Below are positions 4,935-40,716 of a stretch of 60,976 nt of DNA, piece by piece. The notes under the pieces were generated by a model, which saw only the letters and a program-made list of their open reading frames with translations, was not told the DNA's origin and ran no database searches. The stretch is taken from positions 1-60,976 of IMG/VR virus record IMGVR_UViG_3300042922_000323, one strand, 5' to 3'. Made by a program: the position numbers and the translations under genes. How positions within the stretch are numbered: the stretch's first letter is position 1; each line of letters begins with the position of its first letter. Source of the DNA: a virus. Lineage: Duplodnaviria; Heunggongvirae; Uroviricota; Caudoviricetes.

Positions 4935-6797
4935 TTGGTAAACGCCGAAAAAGTTGTCACACCCAATGGGAAACAGTGGATTAAGGTTAGCCTGACCCCA
5001 CACCCCATTGTAATTGACGCTATGAGCAAAGTTAAGGGTGCTTTGTTTAACACCAAGACCAATTTTTGGGCTGTACCATATGAGTATGTCAACGATTTTG
5101 TTAGCAAGATGGCTGACTACCTTATTGTATGGAAAGGTGAAGACGAACCGCTGATTTACACACAAGGGATTACGGAAGATGATATTCCCTCCTCCCCTGT
5201 AGTGCCAGGTTACACTGTCCAATATGACAGTGAAGGTAATATCACAGGTTCAACAGGTTTTAAGACCACCCCGTGGGGCGAGTTCCAGGTCAAGGGCTTT
5301 AACTTGATGGTTAGTAGAGACTTCTTAATCCTAGCTGATGATGCGGGTCTTGGAAAGAGTTGGCAGGTTGCCAATGCAATGGAAGCAAAAAAGAGACTAG
5401 GAGCTGTTAAGCGAGGTGTTGTAGTATGCAAAGCTTCACTGCTATTTAACTGGCGTGATGAAATACATATGCATACCCACCAAAAGGCTGTTGTAGTCGC
5501 AGGTTCTCAAACACAACGAAATGCCGCATATAATCAACTGACTTACTCAGATGATTGGACGTTTATTGTTGTGTCCTATGAAACTTTCCGTTCTGACATA
5601 AATAACTTCCAACTACTTGACAATATGAAACCGCTAGATTTTTGTATTCTGGACGAAGCACATAAGATAAAGAACCCGCAGAGCAAGATAGGGGCTTATA
5701 TCCACAGAATACCTTTTAGGTGCAGATACGTTCTTACAGCTACACCGTTGCCTAATAGTCCCCTTGAATCGTACAATTATTTGTACTGGGGCAATGTAAT
5801 ACAGTCCAACTGGTGGAGTTTTAGGAACAGATATGCTATTATGGGCGGGTACAACAAAAGAGAGATTATAGCCTACCAGAACATTAGAGAGCTACGCTCT
5901 TGGATTCAATACAACATGCTTAGACGACTCAAAAAGGACAAGCTTAAAGAGTTGCCTGATGTTGCTTTCAAGAGAGTAACAATACCCATGTCGGCTAAAC
6001 AAGCTTATTATTATAAGGCTGTTAAGCAGGAGATTATGGAAGACTTGAAAGACACTTCACTTGAACGTGTTCCGACTGCTCTTACTAAGTTGCTGAGACT
6101 ACAACAGGTTACTGACTCACCTGAGTTAATCGGTGTTGAGGATGGAAAGCCCGCCAAGATTACAGCATTAGAAGAAATGTTGGAAAACATAATAGATGAA
6201 AGTGGAAATAAGGTTATAGTGTTCTCTAGGTTTAGGGGAATGGTTGAACTTATTACAAAGAAATTTGAGAAGTACAACCCCGCAATTATTCATGGTGATG
6301 TAGATGCTAACGGTATGTCTATTCTATCGGCTTCAAAGGTACTGCGAGACCGATTGGGTGCTGATAAATGGGCACTCCTTACTCAGGAAGAGCGAGAGAA
6401 GTTACTAGAAGAAGCAATGACTTCCGAGAGACAGCGGGAGGTCTACAAATTCCAAAATGATGACACATGTAAACTCTTTATTGGGTGTACCCCTGCATGT
6501 AGAGAAGGACTTACACTAACCGCCGCCACCCACGTAATCTTTTTAGATTGCGAGTGGTCGCCCGCTTATGTGGAACAAGCTTACAGCCGTGCCCATCGTA
6601 TTGGTCAAAAAGACGCTGTAACTGTGTATTACTTGGTATGCGAAAATACCATAGATGAATATGTTCAAGATGTCCTTGAAAGAAAGGACGAAATGGCTCA
6701 AACAATGCTTGATAATGGTGTAAAAGCCTTTGGAGAGCAGAGAGCTAGAAATTTAATAGCACAGATGATTGGTATGGCATTGGAGGAGGTCGCATAG
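4935..6797 (+). CDS. SNF2-family (SF2) helicase/ATPase
   Basis: LADDAGLGKS (I), LDEAHKIKN (II), LTATP (III), QAYSRAHRIGQ (VI). Confidence 0.95.
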   Translation: MVNAEKVVTPNGKQWIKVSLTPHPIVIDAMSKVKGALFNTKTNFWAVPYEYVNDFVSKMADYLIVWKGEDEPLIYTQGITEDDIPSSPVVPGYTVQYDSEGNITGSTGFKTTPWGEFQVKGFNLMVSRDFLILADDAGLGKSWQVANAMEAKKRLGAVKRGVVVCKASLLFNWRDEIHMHTHQKAVVVAGSQTQRNAAYNQLTYSDDWTFIVVSYETFRSDINNFQLLDNMKPLDFCILDEAHKIKNPQSKIGAYIHRIPFRCRYVLTATPLPNSPLESYNYLYWGNVIQSNWWSFRNRYAIMGGYNKREIIAYQNIRELRSWIQYNMLRRLKKDKLKELPDVAFKRVTIPMSAKQAYYYKAVKQEIMEDLKDTSLERVPTALTKLLRLQQVTDSPELIGVEDGKPAKITALEEMLENIIDESGNKVIVFSRFRGMVELITKKFEKYNPAIIHGDVDANGMSILSASKVLRDRLGADKWALLTQEEREKLLEEAMTSERQREVYKFQNDDTCKLFIGCTPACREGLTLTAATHVIFLDCEWSPAYVEQAYSRAHRIGQKDAVTVYYLVCENTIDEYVQDVLERKDEMAQTMLDNGVKAFGEQRARNLIAQMIGMALEEVA

Positions 6798-22499: not shown

Positions 22500-23651
22500 T
22501 CATCCTCTCAAAGCGGTCTGTACTAACTCCATCATCTTGCAGTACAAATCACCATTGCCGTTAGTAATGTCATCATTCAGTGCTTCAACTGTCTTGCCCG
22601 CCCCATTATACTTAATAGGACTTCCATCAGCATTGGCTTGGTATTCTCCTGTAGTAGGGTCTACTAACGTAAGCCATGAAGTTCCTTGTAGCACTCCTAC
22701 TGCTTTTGCTACATTTACAAGTTCTACAATCTTATCAAGTCCAGTGTCATAGTATAAGTCAAGTGTAGCTTTCTTGTGAGGTGCGGCTATCTTATTTTTA
22801 GCTATTTTTACCTTTATCTGTTGACCAAGAACATTTCTCGAATCACCTGTACCTTTAGCAAACTGTTCGCCTACAGCTACATCTAACTGGTGTGTGTAAG
22901 CAAATTTTAAAGCCCTACCACCAGGAGTGTCTGTGGGAGTACCAAACGGTGAGAACGCTCCTATCTTATCCCTCAACTGGTTAACACATATCAGTGTAGT
23001 ACCTGAATTGGTAAGCAGACCTGTGTTAATAATTTTACGTACAGCCTTGGCATTAATCTGAGAATTACCACCGACTCTACTCGCTTTATCCCAATCAGTC
23101 TGTTCAAACTCGTCCTTACTTACAAGAGCCGCTACAGAGTCAATACCTATAATACTGAACCTTCCCGTAGCTACTAAGTACTCAACCATGTCAAATACTT
23201 TTTCTGCATATGTATCGGGCTGAGAGAAGAATAGTCTGTCAGTATCAACACCTAATGTTCTTGCCCATTCAGGGTTATAGGTGTATTCAAGGTCTAAAAT
23301 TGCACATTCTTTGTCAGGTTCATTTCTCTGTGCTTCGGCTATAGCCATATTAAGCAGAGTAGTTTTACCAGACCGCTCTACGCCCCTCAACTCTACAAGT
23401 CTTCCGTGCGGGTAACCACCACCAAGAGCCAAGTCAAGTTGTAATGAACCAGAGCCACGAACTTTTATATCCATCAGCTTCTCATTGCTACCAAGCCTAC
23501 ATATCTTTCCTGCCCCGAACTCTCTAGCAAAGTCTTCTTCCAAAGAGCCACTTACTTTACCTTTTGGTTTAGGCTTCGTAACCTTGACTTCTACTTCCTC
23601 GAAATCTTCGTCGGGCAATCCATCACCCATGTATTCAGCGTCTAAACTCAT
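22500..23651 (-). CDS. recA: RecA/UvsX-like recombinase
   Basis: LDLALG.GYP.GRLVEL.G..SGKTT, DSVAAL, NQLR.KIG, TPGGRALKF, KNKIA.P. Confidence 0.96.
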   Translation of the reverse strand: MSLDAEYMGDGLPDEDFEEVEVKVTKPKPKGKVSGSLEEDFAREFGAGKICRLGSNEKLMDIKVRGSGSLQLDLALGGGYPHGRLVELRGVERSGKTTLLNMAIAEAQRNEPDKECAILDLEYTYNPEWARTLGVDTDRLFFSQPDTYAEKVFDMVEYLVATGRFSIIGIDSVAALVSKDEFEQTDWDKASRVGGNSQINAKAVRKIINTGLLTNSGTTLICVNQLRDKIGAFSPFGTPTDTPGGRALKFAYTHQLDVAVGEQFAKGTGDSRNVLGQQIKVKIAKNKIAAPHKKATLDLYYDTGLDKIVELVNVAKAVGVLQGTSWLTLVDPTTGEYQANADGSPIKYNGAGKTVEALNDDITNGNGDLYCKMMELVQTALRG

Positions 23652-35839: not shown

Positions 35840-36555
35840 GTTCTCAACTCCTTACTCCGCCTGTCTGAGCCGTTCACTTCTATCACCATACCATTGCTTA
35901 GCAGACGAGATACGTTTCGTTTCCCTAGATTACCCCCATCTGCTAAATCCTTTAGGCTCAGATTGGACGTAGTCACGGTGGATAATACGTTATTGAACCT
36001 ATGGTTGAGTAATAAGAATGTCTGTTCTCTTGCAAAGTCTGACATTGTTCCCGCACCTAAATCATCAAGCATCAGGAGTGGAACATTCATTATATTGTTG
36101 AAACGCTCTTGTGTTCCTGTATCATCTTCCAAGTATCTTAAATCATCAATCAACCTGGCATAGTCTACATACATTGCTAGTGGGTGCTCAAAGTCAAACC
36201 TTGTTCCGCATGTTCTATAAATGTAGTGGTTTACAAATAAAGCCGCCGCATGTGTCTTTCCTGTTCCAGTATTACTGCCCTGAAAGAATACATTCAGCCC
36301 ACCATCAACTTCTTCAACTATGTTGTCTAGCAATGGCTTTATCTTTTCAAACACTTCCCTGTTCTTATCATCTACTTTGTAGTTGTAAAGGTTTGCTTGG
36401 AGATACCTTTTGGGTATCTCCGAAAACGCAAGAGCCTTATACATTCTAGCGTGCATACGGCAAAAGGAACTGTCTGTCTTCTCCACCTCGCCTTTGTATC
36501 GTGGACAAAATGCTTGTGCTAGGCACTTTGTACATTCCTCATAAGGTGCTGTCAT
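35836..36555 (-). CDS. DnaC/IstB-like AAA+ helicase loader
   Basis: G.NTGTGKT, LMLDDLG, HRFNN.LST..TSN. Confidence 0.88.
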   Translation of the reverse strand: MTAPYEECTKCLAQAFCPRYKGEVEKTDSSFCRMHARMYKALAFSEIPKRYLQANLYNYKVDDKNREVFEKIKPLLDNIVEEVDGGLNVFFQGSNTGTGKTHAAALFVNHYIYRTCGTRFDFEHPLAMYVDYARLIDDLRYLEDDTGTQERFNNIMNVPLLMLDDLGAGTMSDFAREQTFLLLNHRFNNVLSTVTTSNLSLKDLADGGNLGKRNVSRLLSNGMVIEVNGSDRRSKELRT

Positions 36556-37607
36556 TACAATCCCCTCTTTCTTAAAAAGTTCATTAAATCATCATCTTCA
36601 TCACTCTGTACTGGTTCATCAGGTTCTTCCCCTTTATCATCAAACCTAGTATAGAACTTACCAGTTGTCATGAAAGCTGTAATGGAGTTCTGAACATAAG
36701 TTCCGCAGAATCCACTAACGTAGTGTTTGGAGAACGCTTCGCCATGCTCAAAATAAATATCCATCATTGCTTTCAGTAACTCGTTGTTTCCCCTTTTCTC
36801 AATCGCTACACTAAGAGAACGTAAATCCCACCGTTCAGTGAAGTAAGGTGTTTTATACTTAGCTACATATAACTGCTCAAAGTACTTCATAAAATAATGA
36901 CAGTTCCATGTAAGCACAGGGTCATTCAAGTCAACCTTCTTTTTCTTCGGCTTGCTTACCTTATCTACATCTGCAACCTTATCAACTTCTTGACTCTTGC
37001 TTGGCTTAACATTTAGCTGTCGTCTTGGTGGTTCAGCAGGTAATGGTTCTTCTACTAGTTCCTCAGATTCCATCTGTTCACTACTTGCAAAATCCGAAAA
37101 CCATTGAGCTAATGTAGTCATGTAATGTTCGGGCTTAGTACAGCTATTTAAAGACTTGTACAAATCCGTTTTTTCATACTCAGCTACAGCCCTGTAAAAT
37201 TCATCCACTTGCTCTGTCCCTACAGGTTTAAGTGAATGAACCATTTCTGAATGTCTCAGCATTGGTATCCTATGTAATTCAATTAAGTGGTAAGTGTCTA
37301 CCGAATTTGCTGACCCCTTCTCAATGATTATGAAACCCTTATCCACAAGCTCCTTTAAATAGTTAAGCAACGTCTGCCTACTACATCGGAGTTTCCCCCT
37401 AAGAGTAGCCTGACTTGGGTGACACTCTTGTTTCTCCCAAGCATAAGCTTTTAAGCAGGTGTATAATTGCTTTGCCCCTAATGAAAGGAACATACAATCT
37501 GTTACCTTATTAGGAATCATTGAAAAGCCCTTATTTTCACCGTAATGCATCATAAAGCTTTCTTGTTGGTCACAAAGTTCAACCCTAAATTCCCCCAATA
37601 GCATCAC
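36555..37607 (-). CDS. replication initiator with N-terminal winged HTH
   Basis: LS.GAK.LY..L..YA...CHPSQATL...L.EL..KGFI; directly upstream of dnaC/dnaB. Confidence 0.75.
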   Translation of the reverse strand: MMLLGEFRVELCDQQESFMMHYGENKGFSMIPNKVTDCMFLSLGAKQLYTCLKAYAWEKQECHPSQATLRGKLRCSRQTLLNYLKELVDKGFIIIEKGSANSVDTYHLIELHRIPMLRHSEMVHSLKPVGTEQVDEFYRAVAEYEKTDLYKSLNSCTKPEHYMTTLAQWFSDFASSEQMESEELVEEPLPAEPPRRQLNVKPSKSQEVDKVADVDKVSKPKKKKVDLNDPVLTWNCHYFMKYFEQLYVAKYKTPYFTERWDLRSLSVAIEKRGNNELLKAMMDIYFEHGEAFSKHYVSGFCGTYVQNSITAFMTTGKFYTRFDDKGEEPDEPVQSDEDDDLMNFLRKRGL

Positions 37608-37629
37608 TCCCGTTTTACTTTTTCAAGAG

Positions 37630-37659
37630 ACTTATACGCACGGTCACGTACACAGTTAA
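37630..37659 (-). promoter_or_regulatory. phage-specific (middle) promoter motif
   Basis: TTAACT-N15-CGTATAAGT. Confidence 0.8.
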
Positions 37660-37682
37660 ATAAAATTTTAAAAAATTATTTA

Positions 37683-37712
37683 TTGACAATATTATCCTGG
37701 TGGGTTTATAAT
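37683..37712 (+). promoter_or_regulatory. SigA-type promoter of the recombinase
   Basis: TTGACA-N18-TATAAT. Confidence 0.8.
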
Positions 37713-37739
37713 ACGCTCATAATATAAATTATGGGCGGT
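37712..37739. other. dif-like tyrosine-recombinase site (11-6-11)
   Basis: TACGCTCATAA TATAAA TTATGGGCGGT; arms 8/11 inverted. Confidence 0.7.
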
Positions 37740-37745
37740 GATATT

Positions 37746-38588
37746 ATGAGTGCTGTGGATGACTTCAAACGCTACTTAGAAGTGGAACGCAGGGCATCGG
37801 CACATACTGTTGAAGGGTATATGACTGACCTAGTGCAGTTTTTCGACATTGTTAAGAAGGATATTGATAAGGTTGAGTCTGACGATATAACCCTATTTTT
37901 GGAGAAACTTGTAGAAAAAGGTCTGATAGTTTCTACTACTAATAGAAAGTTATCTTCGGTCAAAACTTTCTATAAATATCTTGTATTACATAAAGTATTG
38001 AAGTATGACCCCTCCTCACTGATACAGAGCGGCAAGCTAGAACAAAGACTTCCAAAACCTGTAGACTTAGAGGATATTAACTTAATTATTAACATAGTAG
38101 ATAATCTACGAGACAAGCTAATGTTTGAATTGCTGATCGGGTTGGGTGTAAGACGTGAGGAACTGGCGGGAATAAGGAAGAGTAACATTAATTATAGACG
38201 TGGGTATGTACGTGTGTTTGGTAAAGGAAACAAAGAGCGTATTGTTCCTGCCTATAAGAAAGCTCTGGACTTAGCACTAGAATATGGGAGTTCCCATAAT
38301 AGTCCGTGGTTGTTCTCAGGGCGTGACCCTTCTAATCATATCTCGGTAAGAAGGGTGAATGAACTGGTATCCTACTGGGTAGATAAAGCAGGGCTTTCAG
38401 GTAAGGGGATAACCCCTCATAAGTTTCGTCACTCATTTGGAACTTACCTATATGAAAATGGTGCTGATATAAGGGCAATACAGGACATGATGGGGCACGC
38501 TTCGATAGATACAACTAACAGGTACACCAAAGTATCCCTAAAACGTAATATAGAAGAATACAAAAAGTACCATCCAATGGCAAAATAA
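37746..38588 (+). CDS. XerC/XerD-like tyrosine recombinase
   Basis: S..T..GY, G.RREE, GKG.KER, TPHKFRHSF, GH....TT..Y; all catalytic residues present. Confidence 0.95.
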   Translation: MSAVDDFKRYLEVERRASAHTVEGYMTDLVQFFDIVKKDIDKVESDDITLFLEKLVEKGLIVSTTNRKLSSVKTFYKYLVLHKVLKYDPSSLIQSGKLEQRLPKPVDLEDINLIINIVDNLRDKLMFELLIGLGVRREELAGIRKSNINYRRGYVRVFGKGNKERIVPAYKKALDLALEYGSSHNSPWLFSGRDPSNHISVRRVNELVSYWVDKAGLSGKGITPHKFRHSFGTYLYENGADIRAIQDMMGHASIDTTNRYTKVSLKRNIEEYKKYHPMAK

Positions 38589-38620
38589 AAGAGAGGAGTC
38601 ACGCCCCTCTCTTTTATTTT
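38587..38620. terminator. bidirectional terminator
   Basis: AAAAGAGAGG-loop-CCTCTCTTTT. Confidence 0.8.
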
Positions 38621-40716
38621 GGAATGAAATTTGACCTTATCCAAACTCTTGGTAACTTTCTATCTTCGTAATCAAGTTCACCTTCATAATTAGGTCTCCA
38701 CCATCTTGCCCCCGTCTTAACTGTAGCACCACAGGAGAAGTGTGACCACTTAGCTTGTATAAATGCCGAAGACACTTTGTGGCTTCTGTAAAAACCATTT
38801 GCTACAAATGCTTGCCAATAACTATAGCTTGCATCAAACTGTCTTAAGTAAACTGAGCTTACCAGTGAACGGTTTTGGTAAACGTTAGCTTCACCGTAAA
38901 TATTTCTAGTTCTGGCTATCTGTGCTGAACCGTAATTCCCAGTAACATCACTACGTCTTCTAGTGACATACGCTTTTATGTCTTTATAATCCGAACGTCT
39001 TATAATACCGTTACCATATAGACCGAAGTAAGAACTAGCTACATCAATGCTACCAATCGTATCCTTTATATCTCCACGTCTTACTGTTGCTCTATCTTTA
39101 AAGTCTTTATCTCCGAACTGTCTTATTACCGCCGAAGCATAGTTCCAAGATGCCTGAGTCAAATCAGCAGTACCTGTAATGTTATTATTTACTCTCAGTG
39201 AGTAGTGACCAGGCAACCAAGCTTTCTGAGCCTCCGCACGTGAAGCAATATCTTTTGGAATGTATGCTCGTTTAAATGCCGTTGACACCATATCCACTGA
39301 CTTTCGGAGACTGTACTTGCTGTACACCCAAGGTTTATCTAAATAAGCCTTTGAACTTTTGTCTTCTTTAAAGCTATCTCTTACTATAACGCTACCTATT
39401 AGGTGGTCATCATGCAATCTAAGCGTAGCCTTACCTCGTAATGAAGGGTTAATGTAACCTTTACCACTCTCGTCTGAGTTGTCCAACCTTCTAATGACAA
39501 CACTGTTGAATGTGTAATTAGAGAATACTTTTTCTGCGTATGAAATCCAGTTATATCTAAGTACATAAGCACTACCATTCTTATCGTCAGTACCTTGGTC
39601 TGGTGGTATTATTGCAATACCAAACATATCTCTTCTAGCTAATATGTTGGCTGAACTGTTTCCTAAAGAAGTATTTTTAAAACCTGAACCCTGTAAATCA
39701 CTTCTCGCTTTGATGAAAGCACTACCAGTAGTATAGCTACTTACAACAGTTTCAGCTATACCAGTCATGAATGGTCTGTTTTTCCAAACCGCCGACTCTA
39801 CCAGTGAAGGGTCTCTCTTTAGAGCATAACCACTCAAATAGGACTTTTCACGTAAGCGGTAGCTGTTATAGAAATCCTTATATTGTCCTGCCACGATTGT
39901 AGCATGACCTGCTAGGAAAGATTCACTAGTGTAACCTGTCCAAGAAGGGTCAGTATACCTAGCTATTACTCTTGGTGAAGTTCCAGACTCTTTGGAATTA
40001 AGAAGTATAAAGTCATCACTCTTAATAACTATATTAAACTTGGTTATACCCTTAACGACTAGCTCCCTTATGTAATCAACTACATCTATTTCTACCTGGC
40101 TACCTGTAACTTGCTGAGTAAACACTGGTTGGGTAGAAAGTGACGTTGAATTTATCCACATAAGGTAATTTTCATGCCATGTAGTGTAGCACTCATAGAT
40201 TTTAATTGTTCCATTGGTTGTTGCCTGTTTTCCTATTAGGAACTTTATAGAAAGTACATTCATATCAGTCGTAAGTAGCTCTGCAATATCAGCTATGTCA
40301 ATCTCAATGAATGTATTATAAGTCCCGTCCGCCGCCTGTCCCGCAACTAGAGTTTGAGAACTGCCGTAGTTAAGTGTTGGTTTCGCCTGTCTTGTATAAG
40401 TATCTTTCAGAGCACTTTCAACTATTTCTAATACGGGTGGTTGGATAAGCGACAGCTTAATGTCCATCTGGTTGCTGTCGGAAACTTTAGCAATACCCCG
40501 ATGTGCTTGGTCTATATAAGGGTTATAGGCATTACCGAAGAACCTGTCATAATGAACAGGTTCAACGAAGGCAGTGCCTATTACATCTCTAAATCCTAAT
40601 TTGTATGCTTCTGCTGTAATAACATTTTCTGCTAAACCATAGGGGACATTAAACTGTATGTCCATGGTATTAACTTCTCGTATTACAGCAGAACACACAA
40701 AGTTCTTATCCGCCAT
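38614..40716 (-). CDS. virion protein with DNRLRE-like domain and repetitive beta-rich tail
   Basis: KDTY...PTLNYGSS..L..G...TFI.ID; periodic G.A.V/I segments. Confidence 0.65.
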   Translation of the reverse strand: MADKNFVCSAVIREVNTMDIQFNVPYGLAENVITAEAYKLGFRDVIGTAFVEPVHYDRFFGNAYNPYIDQAHRGIAKVSDSNQMDIKLSLIQPPVLEIVESALKDTYTRQAKPTLNYGSSQTLVAGQAADGTYNTFIEIDIADIAELLTTDMNVLSIKFLIGKQATTNGTIKIYECYTTWHENYLMWINSTSLSTQPVFTQQVTGSQVEIDVVDYIRELVVKGITKFNIVIKSDDFILLNSKESGTSPRVIARYTDPSWTGYTSESFLAGHATIVAGQYKDFYNSYRLREKSYLSGYALKRDPSLVESAVWKNRPFMTGIAETVVSSYTTGSAFIKARSDLQGSGFKNTSLGNSSANILARRDMFGIAIIPPDQGTDDKNGSAYVLRYNWISYAEKVFSNYTFNSVVIRRLDNSDESGKGYINPSLRGKATLRLHDDHLIGSVIVRDSFKEDKSSKAYLDKPWVYSKYSLRKSVDMVSTAFKRAYIPKDIASRAEAQKAWLPGHYSLRVNNNITGTADLTQASWNYASAVIRQFGDKDFKDRATVRRGDIKDTIGSIDVASSYFGLYGNGIIRRSDYKDIKAYVTRRRSDVTGNYGSAQIARTRNIYGEANVYQNRSLVSSVYLRQFDASYSYWQAFVANGFYRSHKVSSAFIQAKWSHFSCGATVKTGARWWRPNYEGELDYEDRKLPRVWIRSNFIPK

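Follow-up and report, generated by a model that had tools for sequence, protein, structure and literature searches.

Candidate operator and distant candidate resolution site of a single Xer-like recombinase in a large Jenst-like phage

A 28-bp dif-like element over the promoter of a Xer-like tyrosine recombinase gene in a large phage genome is probably an auto-repression operator of that gene, and a perfect palindrome with the same arm sequence elsewhere in the genome is, in the same reading, the probable resolution site of this single recombinase. The DNA analysed (the window) covers positions 1-60,976 of an IMG/VR virus record of 124,976 bases that is rated complete. In the scheme that we favour, the element would serve as a low-affinity binding site of dif geometry for the recombinase encoded just downstream; as the recombinase builds up, two monomers would come to sit on the arms, from the -10 box across the transcription start, and RNA polymerase would be blocked. 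The main recombination site would be the palindrome at record positions 92986-93013, where an Xer-like enzyme acting as a homomer would resolve the multimers that a Jenst-like phage of ~125 kb forms in its circular replicating or plasmid state, and the two sites would not be recombined with each other. Binding, repression, recombination and the biological role are, throughout, predictions from sequence.

The recombinase gene and its surroundings

The recombinase gene (37746..38588, + strand, 280 aa) is the sole + strand gene between a minus-strand replication module, with HTH_36 initiator, DnaC-like and DnaB-like genes, and minus-strand structural genes. It shares its upstream intergenic region with the divergent HTH_36 replication initiator gene (36555-37607, minus strand). 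The ORF finder placed the start at an in-frame upstream ATG at 37731; that ATG is missing in the relative L027, and the closest homologues, P0002 (78% identity) and P0003 (73%), each of 280 aa, start at the position matching 37746, which is the start adopted here. Upstream lies a sigma-A-type promoter with a 12/12 match to the consensus, composed of the -35 hexamer TTGACA (37683..37688, + strand), an 18-bp spacer and the -10 hexamer TATAAT (37707..37712, + strand); most relatives likewise have a -35 of the TTGAC type. Between the recombinase and the convergent gene there is a perfect 16-nt inverted repeat with T-runs (38581..38621) that is terminator-like, though the consensus terminator scan did not call it. 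As a separate observation, the intergenic regions of nearly all relatives have a conserved TTATACG or TATACG motif, ~25 nt ahead of the divergent minus-strand gene; the window copy is located at 37632-37638 (CGTATAA in the minus-strand sense).

The protein contains the Pfam Phage_integrase domain (PF00589; 3.2e-37, 128.4 bits against a cut-off of 27.1) together with SAM_1, and has the R-K-H-R-H/W-Y catalytic residues of the tyrosine recombinase superfamily. In a 31-sequence family alignment the invariant columns include R141/R142, K165, H230, R233, H256 and Y265, in the numbering of a 285-aa gene call. Its best PDB match is E. coli XerD (1a0p, 4.3e-41), and its best NCBIfam match is XerC, at 229.6 bits against a cut-off of 335.15 (TIGR02224); the scores for XerD (208.9 against 329.6, TIGR02225), archaeal XerA (200 against 220) and XerS (78.6 against 267) are also below threshold. 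As these scores fall under the equivalog cut-offs, the recombinase is, judged by its profile matches, Xer-like but not an XerC/XerD equivalog.

The recombinase family comprises about 64 homologues at 41-78% identity, many of them on contigs of 87-125 kb, and one is encoded in a plasmid record of 120,923 bp from Paenibacillus sp. S-38. When 37400-38800 was searched as nucleotides against the phage collection, no match was obtained, and the best named phage relative of the protein is that of Brevibacillus phage Jenst (36% identity), annotated as 'putative recombinase XerD'. Such an orphan 'XerD-like' recombinase appears in the annotation of many large phages of Bacillales and of many plasmid prophages. 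The Jenst paper lists the XerD gene without a function (PMC4909266), and in the literature searched no site or role is described for the orphan enzyme of the Jenst-like family.

The 28-bp element at the promoter

The element occupies 37712-37739 and reads TACGCTCATAA-TATAAA-TTATGGGCGGT, with a left arm at 37712..37722, a central 6 bp at 37723..37728 and a right arm at 37729..37739. The sequence description in the original prediction is accurate: the layout is 11-6-11, the arms are complementary at 8/11 positions, with 10/10 inner bases as in CATAA/TTATG, and our recount against E. coli dif, as printed in PMC3025954, again gives 17/28 identical bases. The first base of the element is indeed the last base of the -10 box, and its right arm overlaps the Shine-Dalgarno (SD)-like sequence GGCGGTGAT (37734..37742, + strand), which lies within and just beyond that arm, 7 nt ahead of the conserved ATG at 37746; the element itself ends 6 nt before this ATG. 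The left arm is a degenerate half-site whose outward reading is TTATGAGCGTA. An inverted-repeat search fits the element better as 10-4-10, with 9/10 paired. We also observed a perfect 10-nt inverted repeat, CTCATAATAT / ATATTATGAG (37716-37725 / 37741-37750), which pairs the left arm with the start codon and is not kept in L027 or L026.

Taken alone, the inverted repeat is not beyond chance, since 11-6-11 repeats of at least 8/11 number 130 in the window (and 280 in the whole record, compared with ~190 in block shuffles). The significance of the element comes only from the comparison with relatives and from the second site in the same genome. One could regard the element as an AT-rich near-palindrome that arose by chance out of promoter and SD sequence and is functionless in itself, a reading that the 130 equally good repeats and the use of the outer right arm as SD would favour. 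We regard it as very unlikely, given the 13 nt that are identical in a perfect palindrome in another part of the genome, the conservation of the half-site across proteins only 40% identical and a significant covariation test, each of which is described below.

A perfect palindrome elsewhere in the same record

Outside the window, at record positions 92986-93013 (L189 4987-5014), there is a perfect 11/11 palindrome, ACCGCCCATAA-TGTGTC-TTATGGGCGGT, ~55 kb from the recombinase gene and the promoter element. The right arm of the promoter element equals both of its arms, and the 13-mer TTATGGGCGGTGA is common to the two sites. The 9-mer TTATGGGCG occurs in 5 copies in the record, against ~0.65 expected from base composition, and two of these copies form the palindrome; a perfect 11-6-11 repeat of any sequence arises in only 7% of shuffled genomes. 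Both sites have the make-up of a dif-type core (28 bp, 11-6-11 inverted arms, inner CATAA/TTATG with 10/10 bases in each). The palindrome is located between two small + strand genes, with no informative Pfam or PHROG family among its neighbours, and the two small flanking proteins gave no matches as synteny queries. No T-run follows it, and as its arm is not used there as an SD, the arm is more than a ribosome-binding sequence. The original prediction stood to be undercut by a different att site mapped elsewhere, and this palindrome is, by prediction, such a site.

Two further observations concern similar sequences in the record. Lone arm copies occur in coding regions, TTATGGGCGG at window positions 5839-5848 (+ strand) and TTATGGGCG at record positions 76037-76045 (minus strand); neither has an inverted partner, and chance or extra binding sites could both account for them. 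Record positions 98000-123000 hold ten 11-6-11 palindromes of at least 10/11, compared with 1.6 in shuffles; their sequences are unrelated and mostly followed by T-runs, so that they look like terminators between small early genes.

Counterparts of the distant site in relatives

The record of the window (G000) was compared with seven related records in full (G001-G007), the eight genomes being of 100-125 kb. Each of the eight has one CATAA-N6-TTATG palindrome away from the gene, with arms matching at 8-11/11. The counterparts are found at 87967 in G001 (TCCGCTCATAA - TGGGTA - TTATGCGCGGT), 8785 in G002 (ACCGCACATAA - TATACA - TTATGAGCGGT), 82910 in G003 (ACCTCTCACAA - TATACA - TTATGAGAGGT), 20482 in G004 (ACATCACATAA - TACGGA - TTATGTGCAAT), 23060 in G005 (CGTTCACATAA - TAAGCA - TTATGGGAACA), 116119 in the plasmid G006 (AGTGCCCATAA - TGTCAA - TTATGTGCACC) and 10487 in G007 (ACCTACCATAA - TGCGTA - TTATGGTAGAT). 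Measured downstream from the start of the recombinase gene, the distance to the site is 53-63 kb in 8/8 genomes, with G005 counted round the circle. On the scale of the larger neighbouring genes the site is syntenic, lying between a homologue of gene 84393-84998 and the early + strand block, and it falls near the minimum of the cumulative GC skew, at the point from which the two transcription arms run apart (in G000 the skew minimum is at 92161 and the site at 92986). No conserved gene adjoins it among the genomes compared.

At loose thresholds, one dif-like palindrome per genome is found by chance in 10-55% of shuffles, and the case therefore rests on arm quality, synteny and covariation. With a strict pattern, neither Jenst nor any of four phages with a 34-35% identical recombinase gave a distant site. 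In G005, direct copies of a ~38-nt hairpin-forming element, gacatatatcggttttcc...ggaaaaccg, stand on either side of the distant site (L191 1440-1600, about 23000-23160 of G005), an arrangement that we note as a feature of that genome.

Half-sites at recombinase promoters and their covariation

The sequence TTATG-N-G, or a one-base variant of it, is present at or next to the -10 box of the recombinase (-10/+1) in 15/17 lineages, a count that overstates independence because the lineages are related; the half-site consensus is TTATG-N-G-[C/A]. The arrangement of half-sites differs between lineages. Inverted pairs in the 11-6-11 layout are found in the window, L026, L027, L117/G001 and L255, while direct repeats 15 bp apart, with one copy inside the spacer and the other directly behind the -10 box, are found in G003, G005, L115 and L116. 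Both direct-repeat copies follow the -10 box in G004, and the Paenibacillus plasmid (G006) has two direct half-sites 17 bp apart. Single half-sites are present in L109, L256, L238 and G007/L257, and in Jenst the inverted half-sites CACATAA and TTATGAT flank the -10 box at a distance of 17 bp (L252 2434-2480, KT151955.1). The remaining 2/17 lineages, G002/L110 and L254, have no promoter half-site, though the distant site or the gene is present.

Within the clade of the window, the leader is conserved far better than the promoter spacer when the window is compared with L027. Relatives whose proteins are 73% (L027) and 40% (L117/G001) identical keep the left-arm sequence GCTCATAA but not the promoter spacer. 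In this clade the right arm also serves as the SD, and the SD role alone could conserve part of that arm. Comparison with relatives, in which sequences, conservation, synteny and covariation are matters of direct observation, shows that the element is real.

Covariation with the distant site was scored over all 5040 pairings of promoter half-sites with distant arms, summed over seven genomes. The outer six half-site positions match the distant arms of their own genome best, with a score of 35 that is the maximum of the 5040 permutations (mean 24.4). As examples, the promoter of G007 has TTATGGCAGAT where the distant arm has TTATGGTAGAT, and that of G006 has TTATGTGCACT where the arm has TTATGTGCACC. 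Position 6 of the arm is free to vary and can differ even within a single site, from one arm to the other, whereas TTATG and G7 are nearly fixed. Such freedom suits a base that the protein leaves untouched in its DNA site and is awkward for a pair in the middle of an RNA stem.

That distinction bears on the proposal that the palindrome acts as a hairpin in the 5′ leader RNA, hiding the SD and controlling translation. A transcript from 37712 would fold into a stem of 10 bp, one of them G-U, in which the SD is taken up (-14.1 kcal/mol, z -2.4), but the start is expected near 37719, where the 5′ half of the stem is lost (z +0.65), and the hairpin needs a start upstream of 37714. Neither is the hairpin retained in L027 (z +1.0), and it cannot arise in relatives that have direct repeats or single copies. 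On these three grounds (folding from the expected start, L027 and the non-inverted relatives) the hairpin was rejected as the main explanation, and we consider it extremely unlikely.

The recombinase is the only gene that always accompanies the half-sites, which argues for the recombinase as their binder. It is quite unlikely, in our estimate, that the half-sites belong instead to another DNA-binding protein, such as the HTH_36 initiator or a phage repressor, with the distant palindrome as an origin or operator. The intergenic region is common to the recombinase and initiator genes, and the distant site is at the GC-skew minimum, a possible place for an origin. However, the half-sites stay with the recombinase where the divergent neighbour is no initiator but encodes unrelated small proteins (A. 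soli L236, L257 and Jenst), and they hug the -10 box of the recombinase rather than the promoter of the initiator. The 11-6-11 layout, the inner CATAA/TTATG and the likeness to a XerC arm point to an enzyme of the Xer type, and there is the lack of a conserved gene next to the distant site.

Operator or recombination core

If the recombinase binds the half-sites, the promoter element could still be a working recombination core itself, with sister copies in a dimer recombined at TATAAA instead of, or besides, at the distant site. The element has the full 11-6-11 layout, an asymmetric centre, an intact inner CATAA/TTATG and one perfect arm; the inverted arrangement is retained in the clade of the window (L026, L027, L117, L255), and XerS/difSL demonstrates that a recombination site can abut its gene (PMC5357621). 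Arm quality, on the other hand, separates the two sites: the promoter arms are degenerate (8/11 in the window, 6/11 in L027, 7/11 in L117), compared with 9-11/11 for the distant site of that clade. Other clades have directly repeated half-sites or a lone one at the promoter, neither of which could serve as a recombination core. The original prediction had looked to reads split at the TATAAA core; among Logan contigs of soil metagenomes, which alone are weak evidence, one that is the likely source contig spans the site, and no joints and no informative variants were seen there. We judge it unlikely that the promoter element is the working core, while a second, weaker recombination site at the promoter is possible in the clade of the window.

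The operator reading of the promoter element, with resolution at the distant palindrome, is further informed by the centres of the sites. Tyrosine recombinases need central-region identity between recombining sites. The centres at promoter and distant site are TATAAA and TGTGTC in G000 and TAAATA and TGGGTA in G001, and the two sites should therefore not recombine together; for the same reason, a 55-kb inversion or deletion between them was set aside. Of the self-encoded system that had been proposed for the promoter site, the first part stands, in that the arms look like half-sites of a single Xer-like recombinase, conserved in the family over -10/+1. The second part, in which the promoter site was the recombination site, probably gives way to the perfect same-arm palindrome 55 kb off, with its counterparts in 8/8 genomes. 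The proposal that the recombinase autorepresses its own gene fits the half-sites kept over -10/+1 across the family, which would be suitably placed for such repression.

Integration

An attP role had also been suggested for the promoter site, and the integrated relatives speak against it. G004, G005 and G007 encode a large serine recombinase, which is located at the record edge in G004 and G007, both classed as proviruses. G007 is an Aneurinibacillus soli prophage found in contigs of 417 kb and 4.1 Mb, with the Xer-like gene internal. In both G007 and G004 the promoter half-site and the distant palindrome are intact. Intact sites in integrated relatives, together with a separate serine integrase, make an attP or integration role unlikely for the Xer-like system; as judged from the contigs and records themselves, the sites are whole and the gene is internal, unlike an attP/integrase pair, whose site would be split at the prophage ends and whose gene would lie near the junction. 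The record of the window encodes a second tyrosine recombinase (a 385-aa frame, record positions 86466-87005, + strand; Pfam PF00589, 2.8e-30) that is absent from G001, G004, G005 and G007 and may be the real integrase of the phage. G001 has neither a serine recombinase nor a second tyrosine recombinase.

A proposed resolution system for large soil phages

Plasmid prophages commonly carry XerCD-like recombinases that are 'believed' to resolve dimers (PMC8026635). In the present family the plasmid state is documented by the record title of one relative only (Paenibacillus sp. S-38), and a search for a ParA/AAA_31 partition gene gave none over the cut-off. A wider generalization, which we put forward tentatively and with more doubt than confidence, is that every Jenst-like large siphophage, be it lytic, integrated or plasmid-borne, has a single-recombinase 'dif' system of its own, with the core about half a genome from the gene, where the transcription arms diverge, and a feedback operator made of the same half-sites, whose geometry (inverted, direct or single) has been rebuilt repeatedly. 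If so, multimer resolution would be a core function of phage replication and not an accessory of lysogeny.

The assignments give a concrete candidate site pair for one such family of large soil phages, and they separate the likely regulatory copy from the likely recombination core. With the enzyme argued to be a resolvase and not an integrase, such genes should not be used in annotation for calling a phage temperate. For Gram-positive genetics, the enzyme and its sites may also provide a compact recombination pair of natural origin.

Comparison with known systems

The XerCD/dif system of E. coli and B. subtilis has the same 28-bp, 11-6-11 layout, the same inner CATAA/TTATG and a centre of the T...A type. 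The arms here resemble the XerC-side arm of E. coli dif (the G006 arm GGTGCACATAA matches GGTGCGCATAA at 10/11, with dif taken from PMC3025954) and are unlike the XerD-side arm; there is one recombinase, and both arms are alike. Chromosomal dif is single-copy, FtsK-dependent and found at the terminus, at the GC-skew maximum, whereas the distant site is in a phage record and near the cumulative skew minimum, and it is thus not a chromosomal dif. The arms of the plasmid site also differ, beyond TTATGT, from the candidate host dif sites of Paenibacillus S-38. In that chromosome we observed three dif-like sites within 50 kb near mid-chromosome (G006:C1 3742763, 3784196 and 3792330; L231-L233), two of which end in TTATGTAAACA, as does B. 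subtilis dif; these may be dif and elements integrated at dif, and their arms differ from those of the plasmid's site.

The XerS/difSL system of streptococci and lactococci, and XerH/difH, share with the present system a single Xer-family recombinase, a near-symmetric site and linkage of gene and site (PMC5357621). The difSL site is 31 bp with an 11-bp centre, abuts xerS, is located at the chromosome terminus and is FtsK-dependent, whereas here the layout is 11-6-11 with a 6-bp centre, in a phage, with the full site far from the gene and a degenerate copy by the gene. The module is thus not of the XerS/difSL type. In Cre/loxP of the phage-plasmid P1, too, the phage encodes a tyrosine recombinase that acts on a palindromic site, a pair believed to maintain the circular prophage as a monomer; loxP has a 13-8-13 layout, however, and the sequence of Cre is not Xer-like.

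The TnpI/IRS systems of Tn5401 and Tn4430 (Bacillus thuringiensis) are similar in that a single tyrosine recombinase is combined with motifs that form an inverted core pair and direct repeats (PMC7157771, PMC2847244). In Tn5401, TnpI binding in irs modulates tnpI expression (PMC7157771), the promoters being inside the site, and the same modulation of its own expression is predicted here, where the motifs overlap the -10/+1 region of the recombinase's own promoter in all but two of the 17 lineages. The Tn4430 site has accessory DR motifs (PMC2847244), to which the direct-repeat promoter versions in relatives may be analogous. In TnpI/IRS, core and accessory motifs are combined in one 116-bp site by the gene and act in transposon cointegrate resolution, whereas here the full core is ~55 kb off, with weak or partial copies on the promoter, and the protein is Xer-like, being likened to TnpI by layout and not by sequence. 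The system is thus of a familiar kind and leaves the current understanding of tyrosine recombinases unchanged; what is new is that a target site is assigned in a family of large soil phages.
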